Source: a virus
Reading direction: 5' to 3' (one strand)
Length of the DNA: 48,852 nt
Virus record (IMG/VR): IMGVR_UViG_3300010399_000003
Coordinates: 1 to 48,852 of that record
Of the stretch, positions 28,027 to 43,214 are shown in pieces. The notes under the pieces are model-generated. The model saw nothing but the letters and a program-made list of their open reading frames with translations. It was not told the origin of the DNA and did no database searches. Every line of letters begins with the position of its first letter. Within the stretch, counting starts at the first letter, position 1. Both the position numbers and the translations under genes were made by a program.

Positions 28027-28363
28027 TGTGAAACAAATTCAACGCGACCTCCACGACGCATTAGAATTGATTGACGTCTTGCAACACGCGACGCAACTAC
28101 ACGGATACGAGCGACAACCCTACTATCGGCAGATTCAGCTCCTCCTGACTCGGGTGCAAACACTGCTCCTCCTGACTCAGACACAGGAAAAATTGAAAGT
28201 CTACGTCATCGCGAACAAACAGACTGACGCGATTGCAACCGGACGAATCTTCAGCTCGGCAGAAGCCGCTGATAAAGGTCTGATGAAGTTGGTCTCATGG
28301 GTGGCTTCGGAAGCCGACATCCGACGCATGTTTGAAGTAACCGAAGTGGAGGTCGAGTCATGA
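28019..28363 (+). CDS. hypothetical protein
   Basis: 8-nt overlap with the upstream gene. Confidence 0.5.
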   Translation: MTDVKQIQRDLHDALELIDVLQHATQLHGYERQPYYRQIQLLLTRVQTLLLLTQTQEKLKVYVIANKQTDAIATGRIFSSAEAADKGLMKLVSWVASEADIRRMFEVTEVEVES

Positions 28364-29400
28364 CTCAACTCGCACAACCACCCGGTGTGGCAGCACCGTG
28401 GCAAGTCGCCATGGATTCCCACATGAGCGCATTGAAACTAATCAATCATCTCACGAATCATTCGAATGATCTTGATTCGCGGTGGGCGGTCGATAAATTG
28501 ATCATGGAAGACGCCGTGCCGTTTTCGTGGTCCACCGAATCGATCGAAGCAGTCCTGGCCGCGAGTCGAACAATTCCACCGGATACGGTGCTGAACGTCT
28601 GGAATCTCGATACGAATGCCGCGTGGTGGTATTTCGACCAGGAACTGCCGTTTCCCACGATCAACGGCATCGACGGAATTCCGCCAGAGATCGCATCCAA
28701 AACTGGAGTCAAAGCCATGAGCATCGGATGGGTGTTGCATGCGCCTGAGGTTGCCAAGTTTCCAGCTGGCACCGATGTGCGAATTGTGGAACGCGCAATC
28801 CGGGAAGGTCCACCGAAGAAGCGCATGCTCGCAGTCGCGTCGTGGCTGTTAGACCCACTCAAACGATGGACCATGATTCCATCGCAAACGATGCAATGGG
28901 AGTTGAATGATTCACTCGAAGAATTGATGCGCAAATCGAAAACCAAGCATCAACACTTATACGGACCAGGAGGCAAGTGGGAGCGCGTCGCGCATGTCCA
29001 TGAAGACGTGTTCATGAATGCGGCGGAAGGAATGGCTCGATTCATTTTGGCTGGCTTAGCATGGTTGAATCAGAAGGTGCCGATTCTAGTTCAGTCGGAA
29101 GGGCACATCGAACGGCATCGACGTAAGGAATATCAGAAGAAAGTCAATCCGAGTATCACGCATGTGAAAGTCATTTCGCTGCGTCGGGTGGAGCGCCAAA
29201 AGGCGGCAGACCCCGATACAGCACCCGGCGCAAAGCGCGAATATTCTGTCCGATTTCCCGTGGACGGTCACTGGCGCAATCAACCTTACGGACCGAAGCG
29301 CCATGAACGGCGTTTGATCTGGATTTCGCCATTCATCAAAGGTCCTGCGGATAAACCGCTCCGCGTGCCGGAGCACAAAGTCTACAAGGTGAATCGATAA
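28360..29400 (+). CDS. hypothetical protein (346 aa)
   Basis: ATGA overlap. Long clean ORF with no motif recognised. Confidence 0.6.
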   Translation: MTQLAQPPGVAAPWQVAMDSHMSALKLINHLTNHSNDLDSRWAVDKLIMEDAVPFSWSTESIEAVLAASRTIPPDTVLNVWNLDTNAAWWYFDQELPFPTINGIDGIPPEIASKTGVKAMSIGWVLHAPEVAKFPAGTDVRIVERAIREGPPKKRMLAVASWLLDPLKRWTMIPSQTMQWELNDSLEELMRKSKTKHQHLYGPGGKWERVAHVHEDVFMNAAEGMARFILAGLAWLNQKVPILVQSEGHIERHRRKEYQKKVNPSITHVKVISLRRVERQKAADPDTAPGAKREYSVRFPVDGHWRNQPYGPKRHERRLIWISPFIKGPADKPLRVPEHKVYKVNR

Positions 29401-29782: not shown

Positions 29783-30126
29783 GCAAGAAAATCATTTATC
29801 GCCAAGACTATCTCTCGTCCGACGGCGAAACGAAACACTGGGTTGTCGTCTACGACGATGATTCAATTTCCTGCTCGTGCCGTGGCTTCAGCACACCATC
29901 CAAATGCTGGCATGTAAAAAAAGAAGCCAAAGACATGGGTCTGGAACTCGATATCAGCACATGGGGCGCGAAACTCGGGCCTCCGCTGAAGGATGAACGA
30001 ATGGAAATGCTCGTCAAGGGCAAGACCTTCGTCGCAAATCCGGGACCGCATTCCTATGTGCGGAGTCACCTCACTGTGTGCTATTCGTGCGGAAAACTAA
30101 AGAAGGATCCGATTCACTGGCGATGA
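29779..30126 (+). CDS. SWIM-type zinc-finger protein
   Basis: CSCRGFSTPSKCWH fits the CxCxnCxH SWIM pattern. ATGA overlap. Confidence 0.55.
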   Translation: MSKKIIYRQDYLSSDGETKHWVVVYDDDSISCSCRGFSTPSKCWHVKKEAKDMGLELDISTWGAKLGPPLKDERMEMLVKGKTFVANPGPHSYVRSHLTVCYSCGKLKKDPIHWR

Positions 30127-33992: not shown

Positions 33993-34167
33993 GGTCGTAT
34001 CGTATATTCAAGTGACGCGAGCTACATCTTCACTGACGGCCTATCGTACTGTGAAGGACTGGCTCAATCGCTATTCACATCAACGAGTCGTTGAAAAGAT
34101 TGACGAGAAAATTGCGGAGAAGGAACAGCTCATCGCGAAATACGCTGAAATGGGGGATGAAGAATGA
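33982..34167 (+). CDS. hypothetical protein
   Basis: Track ORF with an 11-nt overlap. Confidence 0.45.
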   Translation: MAHKVVSYIQVTRATSSLTAYRTVKDWLNRYSHQRVVEKIDEKIAEKEQLIAKYAEMGDEE

Positions 34168-34334
34168 CCTATTGGTTATGGCACATCATTATTCCCGCGA
34201 TCCTCGGGTTCATCGCTGGCGTCTATGTCGCCAGTCATCGGCGAACGAAGCGTCTGCGCACTGAAGCGAAAGAAGACCAAGAACGACTGCGGCGTATTGA
34301 ACAGGCCGAGCACAGATTTCGGAGGAGGTCATGA
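34164..34334 (+). CDS. small single-pass membrane protein (56 aa, not in ORF track)
   Basis: ATGA overlaps at both ends. Translation is MTYWLWHIIIPAILGFIAGVYVASHRRTKRLRTEAKEDQERLRRIEQAEHRFRRRS. Confidence 0.45.
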   Translation: MTYWLWHIIIPAILGFIAGVYVASHRRTKRLRTEAKEDQERLRRIEQAEHRFRRRS

Positions 34335-35467: not shown

Positions 35468-35616
35468 TGAGCAAGCGGAAGCGCAAGATACGATCGATGA
35501 AGTGCCCGAACTGCAATGAATCAGGGTTGTCGGGGATGCCTGGGCAGCACCGTCAATTGCGGATCGTTTGCCTCTTTTGCCACCACGAATTTGTGGAAGA
35601 ATGGAAGCCGGAATGA
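35467..35616 (+). CDS. small zinc-ribbon protein (49 aa)
   Basis: TAATG overlap. CPNC...CLFC. Last gene of the + block. Confidence 0.4.
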   Translation: MSKRKRKIRSMKCPNCNESGLSGMPGQHRQLRIVCLFCHHEFVEEWKPE

Positions 35617-35640: not shown

Positions 35641-35760
35641 GGTTTAAGCGACTCCGCTGGGGAAGTAATCAGAGGGTAAGGTAACGCTAAGGGGAGAGTC
35701 CGAATTCGGGCTGCTTCTTAAACCCAGGTTCGTCCGATTTGGTGCTTGGCGCGACCCAAA

Positions 35761-35788
35761 TAGCCCACGGCCGTCAGGTCGTGGGCTA
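35761..35788. terminator. candidate bidirectional terminator between convergent blocks
   Basis: TAGCCCACG-GCCGTCAGGT-CGTGGGCTA (9-bp stem), flanked by CCAAA upstream and CATTT downstream. Lies 20 nt from the stop of the - strand gene at 35808. Confidence 0.55.
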
Positions 35789-35807
35789 TCGCCATTTATG
35801 GCCCTCT

Positions 35808-36560
35808 TTAGCGGTCCGTGATAATCGCGGCCTCGCCCTGCTCGGCGAGGAGTCTCTCCAAGGAACGATAGGACAGCCAGACCGGCCACGGATAGAGTTC
35901 ACCCCACGAATTCAACCAGCCAATCGCTTGCCGCTCGTCGGAACATAGCGGCGCGCAAATGCAATGCCCGCCAACGATCGGTCCCCACTCTGATTCTGAC
36001 CGCACCCACTTTTCCACTTTCCGCCCGACGGTCTTGTCGACTGCCTCATAGAGACCATCGTACCAGTTGATACCCAAGCAAACGACCGGCCGTTTGCCGA
36101 TTGCCTGCATTTCGGCGAAGTAAGTGCGGATCTGGTCAACTGACGTCAACCACCGATTGACGTCCACGATGCCTTCATCCAGTTCTTCCGGACGTTCATG
36201 GCCGGCATAGAATCGGGAATGGCCTTTCGTTCGAAGTACATCGAATCCAGCACGCAACGACGTCCCACCCTCCGGTGGTGTATCTTCCCACTCGTCGATT
36301 GCCTGTGCCTCGTGGTACAGCCATAGAGCGCTGTATTTCTTGCGATTCAGAATCGACATCATGATCGATTCGCCGAAACCGACGCACGCACCTTCGCGGC
36401 CCTGATCATAGAAGGCGTGATATGAATTCGGCAACGGAAGGTCCGTGACTTCGACCTCAGCAACCGTGCGCTGCAATCCGCGCAACGCGGTGCCGGGATA
36501 TTTCAGGACATGCTCGAAATCGGTTGGCGGCCGTCGATCTACAATGGGTCGTTCTTCCAT
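35808..36560 (-). CDS. papain-like (C1 family) cysteine peptidase-like protein
   Basis: QGREGACVGFG (catalytic Cys context QxxxGxC), GGHCICA (His) and GWLNSWG (NSWG Asn/Trp block) in the canonical Cys-His-Asn order. Confidence 0.6.
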   Translation of the reverse strand: MEERPIVDRRPPTDFEHVLKYPGTALRGLQRTVAEVEVTDLPLPNSYHAFYDQGREGACVGFGESIMMSILNRKKYSALWLYHEAQAIDEWEDTPPEGGTSLRAGFDVLRTKGHSRFYAGHERPEELDEGIVDVNRWLTSVDQIRTYFAEMQAIGKRPVVCLGINWYDGLYEAVDKTVGRKVEKWVRSESEWGPIVGGHCICAPLCSDERQAIGWLNSWGELYPWPVWLSYRSLERLLAEQGEAAIITDR

Positions 36561-36582
36561 GATTCACTCCCGAGCTCACTGG

Positions 36583-37020
36583 TTAGCGGACCAGTGAGCT
36601 ACCAGCATTTATGGCCGTCTTTTTCGGCCGATCCAAACGATTGAAGAACTTTTCCACTTCACGCATGAGGAACGAAAGATAGTAGGTGTAGACTTCCTCG
36701 CTGTCAGGCGCGAAGCGCACGCCGCGGTCATTCAAGATATGGATGACTGCATGCAAGCACTCGTGTCCAACGGTTTGCGATTCCGCACGTGTGGAGGGAA
36801 ACCACAGAAACCACTCACGCACGCCATCGCAGCCATCATTGATGAGCTCAATCATTTTACCGAGTGGTTCCGGGCCATCGACGGCCGTCGTATTGTCCTT
36901 GTAGTGACACCGATACCACTCGGCAAATTCGAGATACGGACCAACGCACATGTGAATCGTTGCGCGGAACACTGGATCGCGGACTGTAAAGGTCCGCAGC
37001 ACCCGGCGCGATTGAGTCAC
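36583..37020 (-). CDS. hypothetical protein with HExxH motif
   Basis: VGHECLHAVIH. ATGA-type 4-nt overlap with the upstream gene. Confidence 0.5.
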   Translation of the reverse strand: MTQSRRVLRTFTVRDPVFRATIHMCVGPYLEFAEWYRCHYKDNTTAVDGPEPLGKMIELINDGCDGVREWFLWFPSTRAESQTVGHECLHAVIHILNDRGVRFAPDSEEVYTYYLSFLMREVEKFFNRLDRPKKTAINAGSSLVR

Positions 37021-38594
37021 AGCGTACCAAAAATCGCCTTCAATGCCTGCACATCGGCTCCCGGCAATTTTCCATCCGTAGTCTTGACCTGCGCGATTGC
37101 CGAATCAGGAATCACTCCGTGATCAGAGTCAAAGCTGGCGTCCCAATTCGCTGGCGGCAACCGCAGATTATCAACAGGCAAAACTCCCTGTGCACGGGCT
37201 CCTTGCCGCCACGCGTTTCCACTGATTTGAGTTCCAGTCCAATCTTTCTCGATTGCCGGGAAGCCGATGCCGTTCGACTGTGAAAAGTAGCCATAGCTGC
37301 TTTCCGCCATGACGGAATTCGTCAGGACAAATTTGCCCGGCGCTTTGGTGATGCCTGAATCGAACCACGTATTCATCCACGAATGCTGATTCGTATGCAT
37401 CGTGATGTGATCCATTACGAAAAATTCTTCGCATCCGTTGGCGAACGGTGCACCGCGGCCAGTGCCCAGCCACGGCGTAAGGTTGATCGTATGAGCAAGC
37501 ACGTTGCGGATGGTCACACGACGCATCCAATCGCTGATACGTCCGCTATCGTTCTTTCCGATGAACCCGAATACGCTGCCGACGTTGCGAATCAGCAGGT
37601 TTGTCATTGTCATATCTTCGCAGGTCGCCCAAGTTTCGATGTTCTCGCCGTTGCAGGCTTTCAACATGATCGCCACACCAGTCGGCCAATCGCGTGACCA
37701 GTTGTTTTCGAACAGGCAACTGTCAACAAGCATTCGCTTGACATGCTTGATTTCGAAGAGCGTTTTGATCGACGCGGTCTTCCAGGCATCATTGAACTGC
37801 TTTTTCAAGTGGCAGTATTTCATCACGATGTCCTGACAGGCCATTTCTGGAGAAGCACTGTCACTTCCGCCGAACATCACGTTCTCCGCGCCGCCTTCGA
37901 AGTAGTTATCATCCAGCACAATGTTCTGGCCACCGTTCCACGCGCTGACTGCCTGTGAGTCTCTCCCTGGTTCGAAGATGTCCTTGAAGTAAGACTTCTT
38001 CACCGTGACATTGGACGCATTGAGAGCGATTCCACGGTGAGCTCCAGCTGTAGGATCGCCAAAGACAAAGACTCGATCAAACATGAATCCGTCTGGACGA
38101 TCTGCAGGTGTTGGCATGCTATTCTTGTCACCACCCATCTCAATAGTCGTAAATGATTTGGTGACTGGTGGCCCGAAGGCCACATTGACGAACGCGGTAT
38201 TCCGCGATTTGTTTAGGATACGAACCGGGCTCTTTGCCGCGGTGACTCCGAAAATCTGGCCCATCGCAGGGAGATATTCTGGACCTGTCCGTTTACCATC
38301 GGCTGGTAAGTTCGTGCTGTCAGAAGAAAATGTGATCAGCTTCGCATCAGTCGGTCTTTCCGCAAGTTTCAGCTCGCCATTGTGGATACCAGGCGCAAGC
38401 AAGATTGTGCCGCCAGTCGGCAGAAGTGTATCATACGCTTTCTGCACACTGTCGCCAACATTAACCTTGATCACGTCCTTGGCTGGCTCCGGTTTCGGAA
38501 CCAGCAGCACGCTATCCAATTCTTTTTCGATGCTATCCGCCGATGCACGAATGGATTGCAGCATCGAGTCTATCCGCTCTCGTTCACCAGCCAT
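37017..38594 (-). CDS. right-handed beta-helix (pectate-lyase-fold) tail spike/depolymerase-like protein
   Basis: N-terminal coiled coil, then GGTILLAPGIHNGELKL. Repeated short Asn/Gly/Val-rich strands (NVxF, NVTV, NIVLDDNYFEGGAENVMFGG) are typical of parallel beta-helices. ATG 38594 lies 1 nt after the upstream stop (internal Met of the track ORF). Confidence 0.55.
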   Translation of the reverse strand: MAGERERIDSMLQSIRASADSIEKELDSVLLVPKPEPAKDVIKVNVGDSVQKAYDTLLPTGGTILLAPGIHNGELKLAERPTDAKLITFSSDSTNLPADGKRTGPEYLPAMGQIFGVTAAKSPVRILNKSRNTAFVNVAFGPPVTKSFTTIEMGGDKNSMPTPADRPDGFMFDRVFVFGDPTAGAHRGIALNASNVTVKKSYFKDIFEPGRDSQAVSAWNGGQNIVLDDNYFEGGAENVMFGGSDSASPEMACQDIVMKYCHLKKQFNDAWKTASIKTLFEIKHVKRMLVDSCLFENNWSRDWPTGVAIMLKACNGENIETWATCEDMTMTNLLIRNVGSVFGFIGKNDSGRISDWMRRVTIRNVLAHTINLTPWLGTGRGAPFANGCEEFFVMDHITMHTNQHSWMNTWFDSGITKAPGKFVLTNSVMAESSYGYFSQSNGIGFPAIEKDWTGTQISGNAWRQGARAQGVLPVDNLRLPPANWDASFDSDHGVIPDSAIAQVKTTDGKLPGADVQALKAIFGTL

Positions 38595-38595
38595 A

Positions 38596-39087
38596 TCATG
38601 CTCCCCTGATGGTTCGCCACGCCTGATTGAAATTGTTGGGCCACGCGTCCGGCCGAGGCTTACCAGGACGCCAACGAGCACGATAAATCATCCATCCTTT
38701 GTTGTACTCAGTCGATGTCGGCATTGAACGCGGATCAATCCACAGCAACAACCGTGCAAAAACAGTCGCAAGTACATCATTATCGACGATAGCATCGTAC
38801 ACCGAAGAAGGTGCAGGTGCGTAAAGTAGCAGCTTACAAATCGCGCCAGCGATTTCCATCGTGAGAGGATTGTTCAGGACTTCGGTGACGCCACCGGCTC
38901 GTTCAAATTGATACAGACCGTGCGCTGGACCATTCGGCACCTGTATTCGGTGTTCCAACCCTGATTCCTGCAAGGCGATAGCCAACAATTGCGCTGTCGC
39001 TTCCTGGCTGTTCATACGGCCGGGAAGCAGTGCATAAGCAGCAGGAATCGTATGCGTGTACGTGTGCCAGATAAAGTCTTCAGTCAT
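38596..39087 (-). CDS. lytic transglycosylase (SLT)-like lysozyme
   Basis: LAIALQESGLEHR...GPAHGLYQFE fits the SLT catalytic E-S...GLxQ pattern. Confidence 0.55.
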   Translation of the reverse strand: MTEDFIWHTYTHTIPAAYALLPGRMNSQEATAQLLAIALQESGLEHRIQVPNGPAHGLYQFERAGGVTEVLNNPLTMEIAGAICKLLLYAPAPSSVYDAIVDNDVLATVFARLLLWIDPRSMPTSTEYNKGWMIYRARWRPGKPRPDAWPNNFNQAWRTIRGA

Positions 39088-39458: not shown

Positions 39459-40769
39459 TTAGGAAACCCACTCATAACCAGTGATCCAAACATAGCCGGT
39501 GCCAGCACCAACACGGAAATACATCGCCTGCATCTCAGTGTGAAATTCCGACGAAAAGCCAACAACCATGCTATTCGCTGCGGCTGGTTGTTGCATAATA
39601 ACATTATTGCGGAGCGTTGTTGAACGCATGTCATAGGCATCTGGAACCGGACCAATGCAAACACTTGCACCGTTCGTTGTATTTTGACCAGCAGCCCACA
39701 CTTTAGTTGGTCCATACGGAATTACCGTTGCCAGATCCGTGAGTACTTCAATAGTTGACGTTGAACCATTCACGATGAGATGATCATTTAATAATTGAGC
39801 GCGTCGGTCAGTTTGAATGAACGCGTCGAAGTTGCTCGAACCATCATTGTAAACATAGCCAACCTTTGTATTCTTTGTATAACCAGTTGGCATCGTCGGC
39901 ACACTATCGTTAAGGCGAGTGTGTGTTTTGAATGTATAATCGGCAGTTGCACTTGAAGTCCAAGTCGTTCCATCGTAGCCATAGAACTGACCATTTGCGT
40001 AAACACTACCTCCTGCGGAATAGTGCCACGAAACATAGTTGACAGCACTCGTGGTATAATCACCTTGTAGAACAATGTAATATGTCGTGCCGGAGGTCAG
40101 AGTTGCAGGTGATCGGAAGATGAATTGTACCCACTGACTAGACGTGCTGAATGCATTAGCGTCGAGTTTGTCCGACGTCGCGAGTGGCGTTCCGGATGGA
40201 CTGCCACTGGAATCTGCTTCAATAGTCAACCATACACGACCTGCTGGATTACCAGCACGAAACATCAGAATATCAACTGCGTCCAGAGGACCAGTCGTGC
40301 CTGGCTTAAAGCTCTGACCTTCCTTGACGTTGGTTGTGGCACCAAATCGGAGTGGGCTATTTGTTGTCTGTGCCGTTTGCGATTGATCAACAGGTGCGGA
40401 TTTCGCCTTGTGTAAAAGCAAACCCTTAGTGCCATCATCTTTAGCAATGGCGTGCACTTCGTATCGAGTTGACGCAGCCTCGCTACCAGTGTCAAGGCCG
40501 TTTGCGCCAGAAACAGTAATATCAGCGGTCTGACCATCCCAATTACTCAGACGAGTTCCATCACTCATCACGATTTCATCCGCCTTTAACCAGACTCGAC
40601 TTGCAGCCAAGTTAAAGTCAGGATGTGTCCGCAAGCGTAGACCACGAAAAGTTTGTAACAGATGGTGTTCAGATCGAAGTGAGTTAAGATTATCACGAAT
40701 ATGGGTATTCAGCATCGAGGCTGTCACCATTTCGCCAGCGTTCCACGTACGAGGATTTGTCCAAGCCAT
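39459..40769 (-). CDS. tail fibre protein
   Basis: The N-terminus MAWTNPRTWNAGEMVTASMLNTHIRDNLNSL resembles conserved phage fibre N-termini. The remainder is Gly/Thr/Ser/Asn-rich. TAATG coupling to the upstream gene. Confidence 0.5.
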   Translation of the reverse strand: MAWTNPRTWNAGEMVTASMLNTHIRDNLNSLRSEHHLLQTFRGLRLRTHPDFNLAASRVWLKADEIVMSDGTRLSNWDGQTADITVSGANGLDTGSEAASTRYEVHAIAKDDGTKGLLLHKAKSAPVDQSQTAQTTNSPLRFGATTNVKEGQSFKPGTTGPLDAVDILMFRAGNPAGRVWLTIEADSSGSPSGTPLATSDKLDANAFSTSSQWVQFIFRSPATLTSGTTYYIVLQGDYTTSAVNYVSWHYSAGGSVYANGQFYGYDGTTWTSSATADYTFKTHTRLNDSVPTMPTGYTKNTKVGYVYNDGSSNFDAFIQTDRRAQLLNDHLIVNGSTSTIEVLTDLATVIPYGPTKVWAAGQNTTNGASVCIGPVPDAYDMRSTTLRNNVIMQQPAAANSMVVGFSSEFHTEMQAMYFRVGAGTGYVWITGYEWVS

Positions 40770-41923
40770 TATCTTGCCCTCTCTCCGAGGTCAACGCGTG
40801 CAAACATCGGATCATCGTAGGAGTAAACAAGCACCTGCCGTGCGTTGGCTCGTGCCCAGATTTCTAGATCCGGCATCTCTTCAAAACGACGTTGTGATAC
40901 AATGAAAGTATCACAATTCGTAACTTGTTCACGAATCATTGGATCTGCAAGATTGCCACACACAAGAAATCCGCGGCCACGGACTTTATCGTAATCCATT
41001 TCAATGCCCATGATCGGCATTTGAAAATCATCGCGAATCCGTTCAAGCAATTTTCCATTACCAGCGCCAAGATCAACGACCAAACCTGCAGGTGGTTGCA
41101 CATTGAGTTCCGCCAAAATCATGGCATGAGCTCGTTCCATGTTGGCTTCGGAATTGAATCCGTTTTCGGTCCAATCTTTCGATCGCATGAGTTTGAGTGG
41201 TTTTGTTGGTTGTTGCTGATATGGAAAGACAAGACCGCGTGCACCTTCGTCTGGATACGAAGTGCCAATTCGACGCACCACACGATTTCCTAATACAGTC
41301 GTTCGCGTCGAGACTTTCAAAATCGGATACTTGATTTCAGCGAGACCGTTCTTTGCGGACCACTCGATTGGCCAACTTAGAATATCGCGTGCCCATCCAA
41401 GTTCTTTCCGTGGCCACAAGGCATCCAAACTTTGAGCGAACAACCATGTATCATCACAGGTGAACGAGCATGGTAGATGCGGCACTAATCGAACACCAAG
41501 CCAACGACCAAGAATATTGCACTCGAGTGGACCGGAGACATGTAACGGATCTGGACCAGCCATATCCCACGTCGTATCGACATTTCCATTGACTTTCACT
41601 CGCTGAAAAAACTGCCGACAACATCGCGGATAGCGCAGCAATCGACCAACCGCGTCATCATCTCGTTTCCGATAGGCTCTCGCAAGTTCCTCAGCCAACG
41701 GTCCGACTGCAAAACGATCCTGATCCACAATCAGTGCCGGTGACAAGCCAGATTTCTGCACGAGCTTTTCACCGTAGACTAATGCCACAGATCGCAGTCC
41801 GAGTCGCACGGATGCCAATTCCACTTCCAGCCACGCGTTCGATACAGCCTGCAAACGTGGTCCCCAAATTTCACGCGCCTTGCTATTCGCCCACATGATT
41901 CGCGTCGAATCAGAAGGAGGCAT
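40769..41923 (-). CDS. two-domain protein: Cys-containing N-terminal domain plus C-terminal class I SAM methyltransferase domain
   Basis: Motif I LVVDLGAGNGKLLE, followed by GIEMD and CGNLAD. N-terminal YPRCCRQFF...HLPCSFTCD. Start at the Met preceded by GGAGA (41923), overlapping the radical SAM stop by 14 nt. Confidence 0.6.
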   Translation of the reverse strand: MPPSDSTRIMWANSKAREIWGPRLQAVSNAWLEVELASVRLGLRSVALVYGEKLVQKSGLSPALIVDQDRFAVGPLAEELARAYRKRDDDAVGRLLRYPRCCRQFFQRVKVNGNVDTTWDMAGPDPLHVSGPLECNILGRWLGVRLVPHLPCSFTCDDTWLFAQSLDALWPRKELGWARDILSWPIEWSAKNGLAEIKYPILKVSTRTTVLGNRVVRRIGTSYPDEGARGLVFPYQQQPTKPLKLMRSKDWTENGFNSEANMERAHAMILAELNVQPPAGLVVDLGAGNGKLLERIRDDFQMPIMGIEMDYDKVRGRGFLVCGNLADPMIREQVTNCDTFIVSQRRFEEMPDLEIWARANARQVLVYSYDDPMFARVDLGERAR

Positions 41924-43214
41924 CCGAATCTCCATGCATCACAGTCGTACCAGAGTCGCCATGAACAACATACGGATTATCTGCGTGTTGATATCCGTCA
42001 GGTGCATCCCAATGATCACCATGAGGATGATCCTGTAAAATCTCTGGTTCCTTACCCGATAACACGGATTGCAGAGCTTCGTGAATGGAAATGTTCTTGC
42101 CGGATTCCCAGAAGCGCAACATAACTGCGTCCACACGCTGCCGTAATTCTGGTTGTTTCGAAAGCGGCACGCGACCTTCTTGAATCAGATCAGCTTCCAT
42201 CCGTTCGAACAGCGCCATCCAACTCGCGCAATGTTCACTGCGATTCCGCCAATCACCGTCCTGTGCGGTGCCAGGACACTGACCTTTGCACGCAAAGAAA
42301 AACCTACATCCCTGACAACCAAGTTCCTCTTGAGGTGTATGGTAGAGTGCGACTTGCCGATCGTGGCTCACGACATCGGCCTTCCGCCAATCCACACCTT
42401 CTTTGTTCATACGACCGCAATTCGAGGATTCACCCTGACCATTCACGCCGCGCACCGCGGCAGTCGTGTAAGGATCACAAGCATTCCAGATACATGTCAC
42501 CTGTTGATCTTCAGCCATGAGCAATTTGCGCATGTCATTGAAGATATCAAAATCAATTCCGGGATGCATTTTCTGAAAATGATACAACGATAACAAGGCA
42601 GCCGTGTTTTCTTCATTCGTTAATGCCATCGTCGAACGCACACGATCATTCTCAACTTCGAGCAGATGGATTCGCATACTGCGAATTCCGAGCTTGTTCA
42701 GGGTGGTGAACCACTGCATGAGTCGCCAAAGTCGTTCGCCAACAGCATTTCCTCGATAGAGCGTCGTGATGATACTTGGTACGATCTTCACTTTGAGCAA
42801 TTTATGTAATGCAACGAAGCTCGCATGCGTTGCTGCACGAGTCTTTTCCAAGGTGCCAGCCCAACGACTGTCGTTTAGTTCGTCTGGACCATCTAGTGAC
42901 AAACCGACATGCACTTTGTATCGCTGAAATAGTACAATGTGTTCGTCGGTAATCAGCGTGCCATTGGATTGGATGCTGTTTGAACCAAATCGCTCAAGCC
43001 CGTAGGCAAAGATCTCTTCAAGAATCGGTAATGGTGTAAGGAGTGCTTCGCCGCCGAAAATGGAAAATTGACCACCCTCGCGTTCAAGACCTGCTTTCAT
43101 CTTTTCGAAATTGTAACCTTGTGTGATATTGCCAGCTTCACGCATTTGATTCTGATAGCAATAATCACATGATAGATTACATGCCACGCCAACAGGCGTC
43201 AATTCAATAGACAT
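41910..43214 (-). CDS. radical SAM enzyme with SPASM-type C-terminal domain (anSME/peptide-maturase-like)
   Basis: CNLSCDYC (CX3CX2C), IFGGEALL, then the auxiliary-cluster pattern CIWNAC...NCG...CQGCRFFFACKGQC (CX2CX5CX3C). 1-nt TGATG overlap with the upstream tail gene. Confidence 0.85.
   Translation of the reverse strand: MSIELTPVGVACNLSCDYCYQNQMREAGNITQGYNFEKMKAGLEREGGQFSIFGGEALLTPLPILEEIFAYGLERFGSNSIQSNGTLITDEHIVLFQRYKVHVGLSLDGPDELNDSRWAGTLEKTRAATHASFVALHKLLKVKIVPSIITTLYRGNAVGERLWRLMQWFTTLNKLGIRSMRIHLLEVENDRVRSTMALTNEENTAALLSLYHFQKMHPGIDFDIFNDMRKLLMAEDQQVTCIWNACDPYTTAAVRGVNGQGESSNCGRMNKEGVDWRKADVVSHDRQVALYHTPQEELGCQGCRFFFACKGQCPGTAQDGDWRNRSEHCASWMALFERMEADLIQEGRVPLSKQPELRQRVDAVMLRFWESGKNISIHEALQSVLSGKEPEILQDHPHGDHWDAPDGYQHADNPYVVHGDSGTTVMHGDSDASF

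Follow-up and report, generated by a model that had tools for sequence, protein, structure and literature searches.

The gene analysed here lies in a 48,852-nucleotide stretch of viral DNA (positions 1 to 48,852 of the IMG/VR virus record IMGVR_UViG_3300010399_000003), called the window throughout, which represents 48.9 kb of a genome of ~112.8 kb that was assembled twice independently, at nearly the same length (Logan SRR6185503_100285 and ENA ERZ27256670 k141_6328653). On the minus strand, an open reading frame (ORF) starting with ATG at 36560 and ending with TAA at 35810-35808 encodes what is in all probability a compact single-domain cysteine endopeptidase of the papain fold (clan CA, C1A-like) belonging to the short bacterial 'xylellain type'. 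An earlier note on this DNA, made from the sequence alone, had described a papain-like peptidase as the terminal gene of a tail/lysis operon, and the gene is in fact the last one on the minus strand, facing a convergent plus-strand block that ends at 35616.

Fold and catalytic machinery of the peptidase

The blocks carrying Cys, His and Asn/Trp occur in papain order as the earlier note had read them, i.e. GACVGFG at amino acids (aa) 57-63, GGHCICA at aa 197-203 and LNSWG at aa 216-220, and the position of the second block identifies the catalytic His as H199. Absent from that first account was a papain-type oxyanion Gln, Gln53, located six residues ahead of Cys59. The distances between Gln and Cys, Cys and His, His and Asn, and Asn and Trp amount to 6/140/18/2 residues in the window protein compared to 6/134/16/2 in papain. 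Across 48 aligned homologues of diverse origin, Q53, C59, N217, W219 and G220 are invariant, as are R9 and H17 close to the N-terminus. A profile alignment with hhalign pairs the GGHCICA block with papain His159 and the LNSWG block with papain N175-S-W177-G, the former block also being paired with the GGH of xylellain in the profile match described below, and in the structural model C59 is found at the start of helix 59-72 and H199 on strand 195-207. Judged by these residues the catalytic machinery appears complete, with Gln53 predicted to contribute the oxyanion hole, Cys59 to be the nucleophile, His199 the base and Asn217/Trp219 to orient and shield it. Motifs and conservation of this extent are far beyond chance.

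The assignment to the xylellain type is based on the family rather than on the single sequence. Searches of Pfam, NCBIfam and PDB with the window protein alone gave no match, so that a profile was required; 583 homologues were found in public metagenomes, and the 48-sequence family profile compared to solved structures returned one match, xylellain from Xylella fastidiosa (3OIS, E = 5.9e-11). The window protein furthermore matches PHROG 16701 ('peptidase', E = 3e-15). Its AlphaFold model (pLDDT, the predicted local distance difference test score, 94.6; pTM, the predicted template modelling score, 0.92) has the two-lobed papain fold of C1A enzymes, and Foldseek ranks xylellain at the top (E = 5e-10), with procathepsin B, pro-papain and cathepsin L as the next matches. 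The best non-C1 folds score clearly lower, namely P210 CD lyase (12.5), the pseudomurein endoisopeptidase PeiR (12.4), C39-like proteins (10-12), staphopain (11), streptopain (10) and AvrRpt2 of C70 (9.2).

These data uphold the C1-type identity proposed earlier, fold and catalytic residues fitting C1A and not CHAP, NlpC/P60, C39 or C70. The profile comparison of Peptidase_C1 with C39, C70 and CHAP that the earlier note had suggested came out in favour of C1A as far as the match to xylellain is concerned, but the Pfam Peptidase_C1 threshold was not reached, the window protein having no match at E <= 1 and one of the 48 family members matching at E = 0.22. Neither the window protein nor any of the 48 members matched CHAP or NlpC/P60 in Pfam, and C39_2 was matched weakly by five of the 48. 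Membership in C39 or the C39-like group was rejected on both profile and closest fold, and so was membership in C70 (AvrRpt2 type), to which neither the closest fold nor the profile points. When the family was compared by hhalign to papain, cathepsin L and cathepsin B, all three confirmed as members of PF00112 (E <= 4e-68), the similarity was weak (probability 11.7%, E = 0.0025), yet the correct residues were paired. Because the Peptidase_C1 threshold is not reached and this similarity is weak, we place the protein in the papain family as a distant member of the xylellain type.

The first 45 residues form an extension ahead of the catalytic domain, the R/P/H motif of which is also present in bacterial homologues. 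C1A zymogens align to the model over 199-213 residues and mature enzymes over 177-188, and from these ~15-30 additional residues aligned by zymogen structures we consider the modelled extension probably a pro-segment-like element. No signal peptide and no transmembrane (TM) segment is predicted, either in the extension or in the peptidase as a whole, which argues for synthesis in the cytoplasm.

The gene is flanked on each side by one copy of a 17-nt motif, AAAGA(C/G)GGCCATAAATG, combined with a perfect 11-bp hairpin, the two hairpins being unlike each other in sequence. The upstream copy, AAAGACGGCCATAAATG, covers 36622-36606 and its hairpin 36600-36573 with the stop codon of the preceding gene in the loop; the folding energy of this element, -31.2 kcal/mol (z = -3.97), was equalled by none of 200 shuffled sequences. 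The downstream copy, AAAGAGGGCCATAAATG, differs by one mismatch, covers 35809-35793 and overlaps the stop codon of the peptidase gene; the hairpin on the 3' side of this codon (35790-35760; -33 kcal/mol, z = -2.26) likely marks the end of the operon. The exact 11-mer GGCCATAAATG occurs at these two places only in the window, and a copy with one mismatch lies at 29793-29803. Motif and hairpin pairs of this kind may be cassette boundaries, a terminator/attenuator pair or RNA-processing sites. The GC content of the peptidase gene is 56.7%, that of the window 52.6%.

Table 1. Positions of the peptidase gene, its functional blocks, its flanking elements and the genes upstream of it in the window.
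Feature	Position	Strand	Details
Xylellain-type, papain-like (C1A-like) cysteine peptidase, coding sequence	35808..36560	-	250 aa
N-terminal extension, aa 1-45, motif R9, P12, H17	36426..36560	-	R9 and H17 invariant, P12 nearly so
Block DQGREGACVGFG	36372..36407	-	oxyanion Gln53 (36404-36402) and catalytic Cys59 (36386-36384), both invariant
Block GGHCICA	35952..35972	-	catalytic His199 (35966-35964)
Block LNSWG	35901..35915	-	Asn217, Trp219; N217, W219 and G220 invariant
Ribosome-binding site GGGAG, read from the sequence	36567..36571	-	6 nt 5' of the peptidase ATG
Upstream flanking element, 17-nt motif AAAGACGGCCATAAATG and perfect 11-bp hairpin	36573..36622	-	by folding
Downstream flanking element, 17-nt motif copy AAAGAGGGCCATAAATG, 11-bp hairpin and UUUGGG	35760..35809	-	by folding
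145-aa upstream neighbour (122 aa in the public gene call)	36583..37020	-	H86-E-x-x-H90, also H94
525-aa protein, probable right-handed beta-helix	37017..38594	-	Pfam Beta_helix E = 0.15 and homology
163-aa all-alpha protein, invariant Q-E-S motif	38596..39087	-	phrog_3108, E = 2e-37
DUF483/methyltransferase-like protein	40769..41935	-	
Radical-SAM enzyme	41910..43214	-	Pfam E = 2e-14, phrog_1802

Distribution and variants of the family

An exhaustive profile search recovered 6,034 representative clusters at E <= 1e-3, 1,393 of them at <= 1e-10 and 229 at <= 1e-30. Among phages the family is uncommon, as the earlier note had supposed for C1-type peptidases: tblastn with divergent members found it in 56 of 50,697 GenBank phage records. 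The window protein itself and a permuted homologue found nothing in the same phage records by tblastn; the cultured-phage homologues were reached with a more divergent query, the copy at locus L005. The 56 records are mostly actinophages and mostly carry the label 'cysteine protease' or 'peptidase'. The former name, in use with SEA-PHAGES and other annotators, is found in phages of Gordonia, Arthrobacter, Mycobacterium and Streptomyces, and the record of Streptomyces phage Sycamore mentions its annotator's HHpred matches to 3OIS with a probability of 99. Our literature search retrieved no paper characterising the actinophage homologues experimentally. Short bacterial C1A peptidases of the 'xylellain type', with xylellain as prototype, have been described as horizontally acquired by Myoviridae and Siphoviridae of the Caudoviricetes (PMC10380794). 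The gene is a member of a known, already annotated and functionally uncharacterised phage family.

Compared to xylellain, the window protein has the QG..G.C, GGH and NSWG motifs, a single domain and a similar size in common, and both have an N-terminal extension in place of the classical I29 propeptide. It differs from xylellain in being phage-encoded, only 16-18% identical, in having a shorter extension with a conserved R/P/H motif of its own and in an extra beta-hairpin that the model places before the His strand (aa 173-195). The actinophage homologues, i.e. Gordonia Aleemily gp29, Sixama gp109, GMA2 Orf38 and Lilbeanie gp40, Arthrobacter Mufasa8 gp26, Mycobacterium Indlovu gp73, Streptomyces Wakanda gp80 and the Sycamore cysteine protease, all within a family covered by PHROG 16701, match the family profile with E = 1e-13 to 1e-24, keep all catalytic motifs together with a C-terminal EG(D/E), are of the same size and have no signal peptide. 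However, they are 22-31% identical to the window protein, lack the insertion at aa 114-128 and have GR..HDERSR as N-terminal motif. Papain and the cathepsins B and L (PF00112) agree with the window protein in catalytic residues, their order and spacing, whereas the window protein has no signal peptide and no I29 propeptide, and the conserved disulphide cysteines of these enzymes have no counterpart among the invariant columns of the window family. Phage lysins of the papain superfamily, with CHAP domains, NlpC/P60 or the C39-like N-terminal domain of actinophage lysin A, are clan-CA Cys-His enzymes like the peptidase and are encoded in lysis cassettes, but they form a different family. Two to three genes upstream of the homologue, Gordonia phages carry a lysin A gene of the C39 type, and these neighbouring lysin A proteins are not matched by the family profile.

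Bacterial relatives of 30-46% identity occur frequently in Actinomycetota (Solirubrobacter, Amycolatopsis, Saccharopolyspora and others), and the family is also present in a metagenome-assembled genome (MAG) of Oligoflexia. A prophage origin was considered for the bacterial copies inspected and rejected, since the islands at L004 and L005 and the copies at L023 and L038 are flanked by ordinary chromosomal genes. The same compact island is present in an Actinomycetota MAG of 67% GC (L004:5570-10249) and in an Oligoflexia MAG of 46% GC (L005:5665-10124), encoding a protein of 408-433 aa, proteins of ~110 and ~265 aa, the C1-like peptidase and a Peptidase_S8 subtilase; the first protein has an SLT transglycosylase domain in L005 and no Pfam match in L004. 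PADLOC, which covers defence systems only, gave no match to the peptidase or to this SLT/peptidase/S8 island beyond generic subtilase matches.

Several homologues of 570-628 aa contain an intein of ~370 aa with a LAGLIDADG-type endonuclease region (L103:4735-6573, the same as L105; L150:4633-6423; P0246, P0270, P0311, P0287, P0292, P0323 and P0380), with Pfam Intein_splicing matches of E = 7e-13 and 1e-7. The site lies exactly between QGxEGA and the catalytic Cys, e.g. '...NQGNEGA|CFPAGT...GVGVHN|CTGF...', so that the nucleophile of the peptidase doubles as the +1 residue of the intein. At least seven of the top 150 family representatives have the length and the split-match pattern of an intein, the sequence having been read for four. 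Occupation of precisely this position by inteins in several lineages fits a conserved, functionally constrained active site.

The intein site is the same in canonical homologues and in a second type of variant, in which a block of ~45 residues comprising the NWY strand and the catalytic His (PVV..NWY..GGHC.C) is placed between the N-terminal motif and the Cys block; its equivalent in the window protein is aa 158-202 (36089-35955). With the His block relocated, the catalytic order is His-Cys-Asn instead of Cys-His-Asn. This order is found in 10 of 121 close family members and in nearly all chromosomal copies of Actinomycetota, the permuted set comprising P0101, P0106, P0111, P0113-P0120 and most of the bacterial loci L007-L083. 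Other members carry C-terminal domains attached by Pro-rich linkers, which by eye, and unconfirmed, resemble a beta-helix (P0358, 586 aa), a glycoside hydrolase (P0264, 705 aa), an SH3b domain (P0298, 334 aa) and a double CPHCH zinc ribbon (P0271, 325 aa).

Gene neighbourhoods in the window and in relatives

The minus-strand genes run from a tape-measure protein through a 734-aa protein, a radical-SAM enzyme, a DUF483/methyltransferase-like protein and proteins of 436, 119, 163, 525 and 145 aa to the peptidase. The tape-measure ORF is cut by the end of the window, leaving 1,127 aa visible compared to 1,503 aa in the full contig; its product has a weak PHROG match to 'tail length tape measure' and resembles PhageMin_Tail proteins. 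For the radical-SAM and DUF483 enzymes, a position inside a tail block, between the 734-aa and 436-aa proteins, is unusual. The adjacent plus-strand block has precomputed Pfam labels for NADAR, DUF6166 and a weak AcrVA2-like match; the protein with the last of these labels has 346 aa and most likely corresponds to the ORF of this length at 28360-29400. The window contains no tRNA gene. Checks on a temperate lifestyle revealed no integrase in the genome parts inspected, and a 396-aa minus-strand ORF at 9427-10617 was discarded as it is not a called gene.

The functions given to the three neighbours in the earlier note, i.e. an SLT-like lysozyme, a beta-helix protein and an HExxH protein, are retained here in weaker form. 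The 163-aa protein has weak, mutually coherent Pfam matches to Phage_lysozyme2 (E = 0.006) and SLT (E = 0.1); Foldseek with its model (pLDDT 95) returned phiKZ gp144, GH19, RpfB, Pae87 and MltF as best matches, all of the lysozyme superfamily and none significant (E >= 0.17). It is thus a candidate for an enzyme of the lysozyme-like or lytic-transglycosylase-like type and might be an endolysin. A beta-helix in the 525-aa protein is suggested by the weak Pfam match and by homology to a 544-aa protein of L001 (E = 1e-134) and a 450-aa protein of L088 (E = 1e-29), the latter being labelled Beta_helix, weakly. The HExxH motif is present in the 145-aa protein, but this protein matches no metalloprotease family and has no match in Pfam, NCBIfam or PDB; it belongs to phrog_1365, of unknown function (E = 9e-13). 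None of the three neighbours has a significant sequence match in PDB.

Among the closest relatives with usable contigs the peptidase gene repeatedly accompanies lysis genes. At L088 (70% identity) the order is a 43-aa membrane protein, an endolysin with GH108 and PG_binding_3 domains, two small genes, the beta-helix protein, a 198-aa protein, the peptidase, an 85-aa protein and a 143-aa protein that combines a single TM segment with a long charged helix. L090 (57%) has a two-TM protein, a 63-aa protein and a Hydrolase_2 endolysin overlapped by the peptidase gene by 4 nt; L002 (57%) has membrane proteins, a Peptidase_M15_4 endolysin, a 202-aa protein and the peptidase; L003 (55%) a two-TM protein, a 45-aa protein and the peptidase; and L001 (63%) the peptidase, a 122-aa protein and the beta-helix protein. 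In L088, L090 and L002 the peptidase thus follows the endolysin at a distance of 0-4 genes with a different endolysin family each time, holin- or spanin-like membrane proteins are nearby in the closest relatives, and in the window the candidate lysozyme-like gene lies two genes upstream of the peptidase. A single gene separates the peptidase gene from that of one and the same beta-helix protein family in the window (37017-38594), L001 (L001:11188-12822) and L088 (L088:8056-9408), with the order reversed in L001 and an unrelated intervening gene in each of the three.

In the Gordonia phages Aleemily, Sixama, GMA2 and Lilbeanie the order is lysin A genes, a hypothetical gene, the protease and a holin, and in Arthrobacter phage Mufasa8 the homologue is the last gene of the lysis cassette and, as in the window, of the tail/lysis block. 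The Gordonia groups have a conserved upstream gene of ~125 aa in common; as a conserved small partner of the peptidase it was rejected, being common to the Gordonia groups only. At L086 the homologue lies among small genes upstream of the terminase.

Role in infection and competing explanations

We favour, tentatively and with a probability of about 0.4, a role as a late accessory protease in lysis or envelope degradation. Encoded last in the late tail/lysis transcription unit, the peptidase would act when infection is ending and would gain access to the envelope only after the membrane has been breached. It would there cut protein or peptide components, together with the glycan-cleaving lysozyme-like enzyme and the beta-helix protein of the genes upstream. 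Until needed it would be kept latent by the N-terminal extension, which probably lies over the catalytic domain as C1A pro-segments do. This reading is carried by the recurrent placement in lysis cassettes of several phage lineages, beside endolysins of unrelated families, as would be expected if the link were to the lysis process and not to shared ancestry of the block.

The degradation of envelope or surface proteins proposed in the earlier note is plausible. The link to lysis cassettes is strong in some lineages, but no such link was detected family-wide, and a number of observations weigh against a lysis role. A recognisable peptidoglycan hydrolase is encoded within <=4.5 kb upstream in only ~6 of 36 de-duplicated viral or metagenome loci (from the Pfam families of 148 upstream ORFs at these uncultured loci), the other upstream families including ThyX, thymidine kinase, methyltransferases and head genes. 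Small membrane proteins lie beside the peptidase at 11 of 38 loci compared to 12 of 47 control genes (p = 0.37); same-strand ORFs were used in these linkage tests because the simple gene caller is imperfect, L002 having been mis-called. In the window no holin or spanin stands beside the peptidase, in line with what the earlier note had remarked for holins, the nearest small membrane ORF being one of 56 aa on the opposite strand (34164-34334), and the 163-aa 'endolysin' upstream is a candidate only. Homologues are furthermore located between Portal_Mu and a Mu-type head protease (L085), near the terminase in Wakanda, within a cluster of tRNA genes in Sycamore, in the right arm of Indlovu and among nucleotide-metabolism genes in the jumbo phage XacN1. 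Bacterial chromosomal homologues, with the N-terminal motif in common, have no signal peptides and lie among housekeeping genes. The Gordonia groups, given their conserved upstream gene, may represent one horizontally spread cassette; the pro-segment idea derives from aligned-residue counts and not from inspected coordinates; and we know of no C1A enzyme that cleaves peptidoglycan.

With its repeated motif and hairpin on either side, the gene looks like a self-contained cassette, and the different positions of homologues in different phages are consistent with such a cassette moving between genomes. The main alternative, which we hold to be possible though doubtful, is a mobile, 'moron-like' accessory protease that would never leave the cytoplasm and would cleave host or phage proteins there, e.g. 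in host takeover, counter-defence or processing of a phage protein; the position behind the tail genes would then be no more than a place where insertion is tolerated. The widely varying genomic positions, the flanking repeats and hairpins with a somewhat higher GC content, the signal-less homologues conserved in many Actinomycetota chromosomes and the lack of a detected family-wide association with lysis genes or membrane proteins all agree with it. The missing signal peptide does so as well, but holin-dependent endolysins normally have none either; placement in lysis cassettes, moreover, is seen repeatedly among cultured actinophages of several genera and in the nearest relatives of the window, and PADLOC, limited to defence systems, returned no match.

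Both remaining explanations are less likely than a cytoplasmic cassette. A virion-associated enzyme, on the tail or in the capsid, that together with the beta-helix depolymerase-like protein would clear surface proteins or an S-layer at adsorption and injection is quite unlikely: the gene does lie distally in the tail module, behind those of the tape measure and tail proteins, the beta-helix family is linked to the peptidase in three related lineages, and the L085 homologue occupies a slot between portal and head protease that is the usual place of minor head protein genes, but the window protein has no detectable virion-attachment domain or fusion to a tail protein, the actinophage homologues stand among soluble lysis genes and not tail genes, many homologues are in early or metabolic gene regions, and the beta-helix-like C-terminal domain seen by eye in P0358 behind its Pro-rich linker could not be verified. 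Very unlikely, in our view, is a true peptidoglycan peptidase, i.e. a second endolysin cutting stem peptides or cross-bridges like CHAP, NlpC/P60 or C39-like lysin A domains on a C1A scaffold. The location between lysin A and holin in Gordonia phages, with the GMA2 copy once annotated 'putative lysin', would suit such an enzyme; however, the carrier phages already encode complete endolysins, often including a peptidase, the C-terminal SH3-like wall-binding segment of P0298 was seen by eye and is unverified, and no C1A enzyme known to us cleaves stem peptides containing D-amino acids.

Returning to a protease of late lysis, its consequences can be taken one step further. The players in phage lysis usually fall into three classes: holins, peptidoglycan hydrolases, and spanins or lysin B. 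Signal-less xylellain-type proteases might form an unrecognised class of lysis factors that cut protein tethers or protein layers of the envelope once holins have triggered, completing its breakdown in parallel to or instead of spanins or lysin B, and that are latent until then by virtue of the N-terminal segment; this extension of the lysis reading is rather unlikely. Their targets could be wall-anchored lipoproteins or outer-membrane, S-layer or mycomembrane-associated proteins. If it were true, a C1A-type protease recurring in actinophage lysis cassettes and beside unrelated endolysins would constitute a fourth lysis class, with a possible use as an envelope-targeting enzyme. The role is testable by deletion, cultured Gordonia and Arthrobacter phages carrying homologues in their lysis cassettes. 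If the role is cytoplasmic, the family would be a widespread and mobile group of phage proteases with targets worth finding. The family is of interest mainly for its unexplained function, for the catalytic-Cys inteins, for the permutation of segments and for the conserved linkage to the beta-helix protein, and it provides a compact natural case of a papain fold with permuted segments and of inteins using the catalytic Cys as splice-junction nucleophile.

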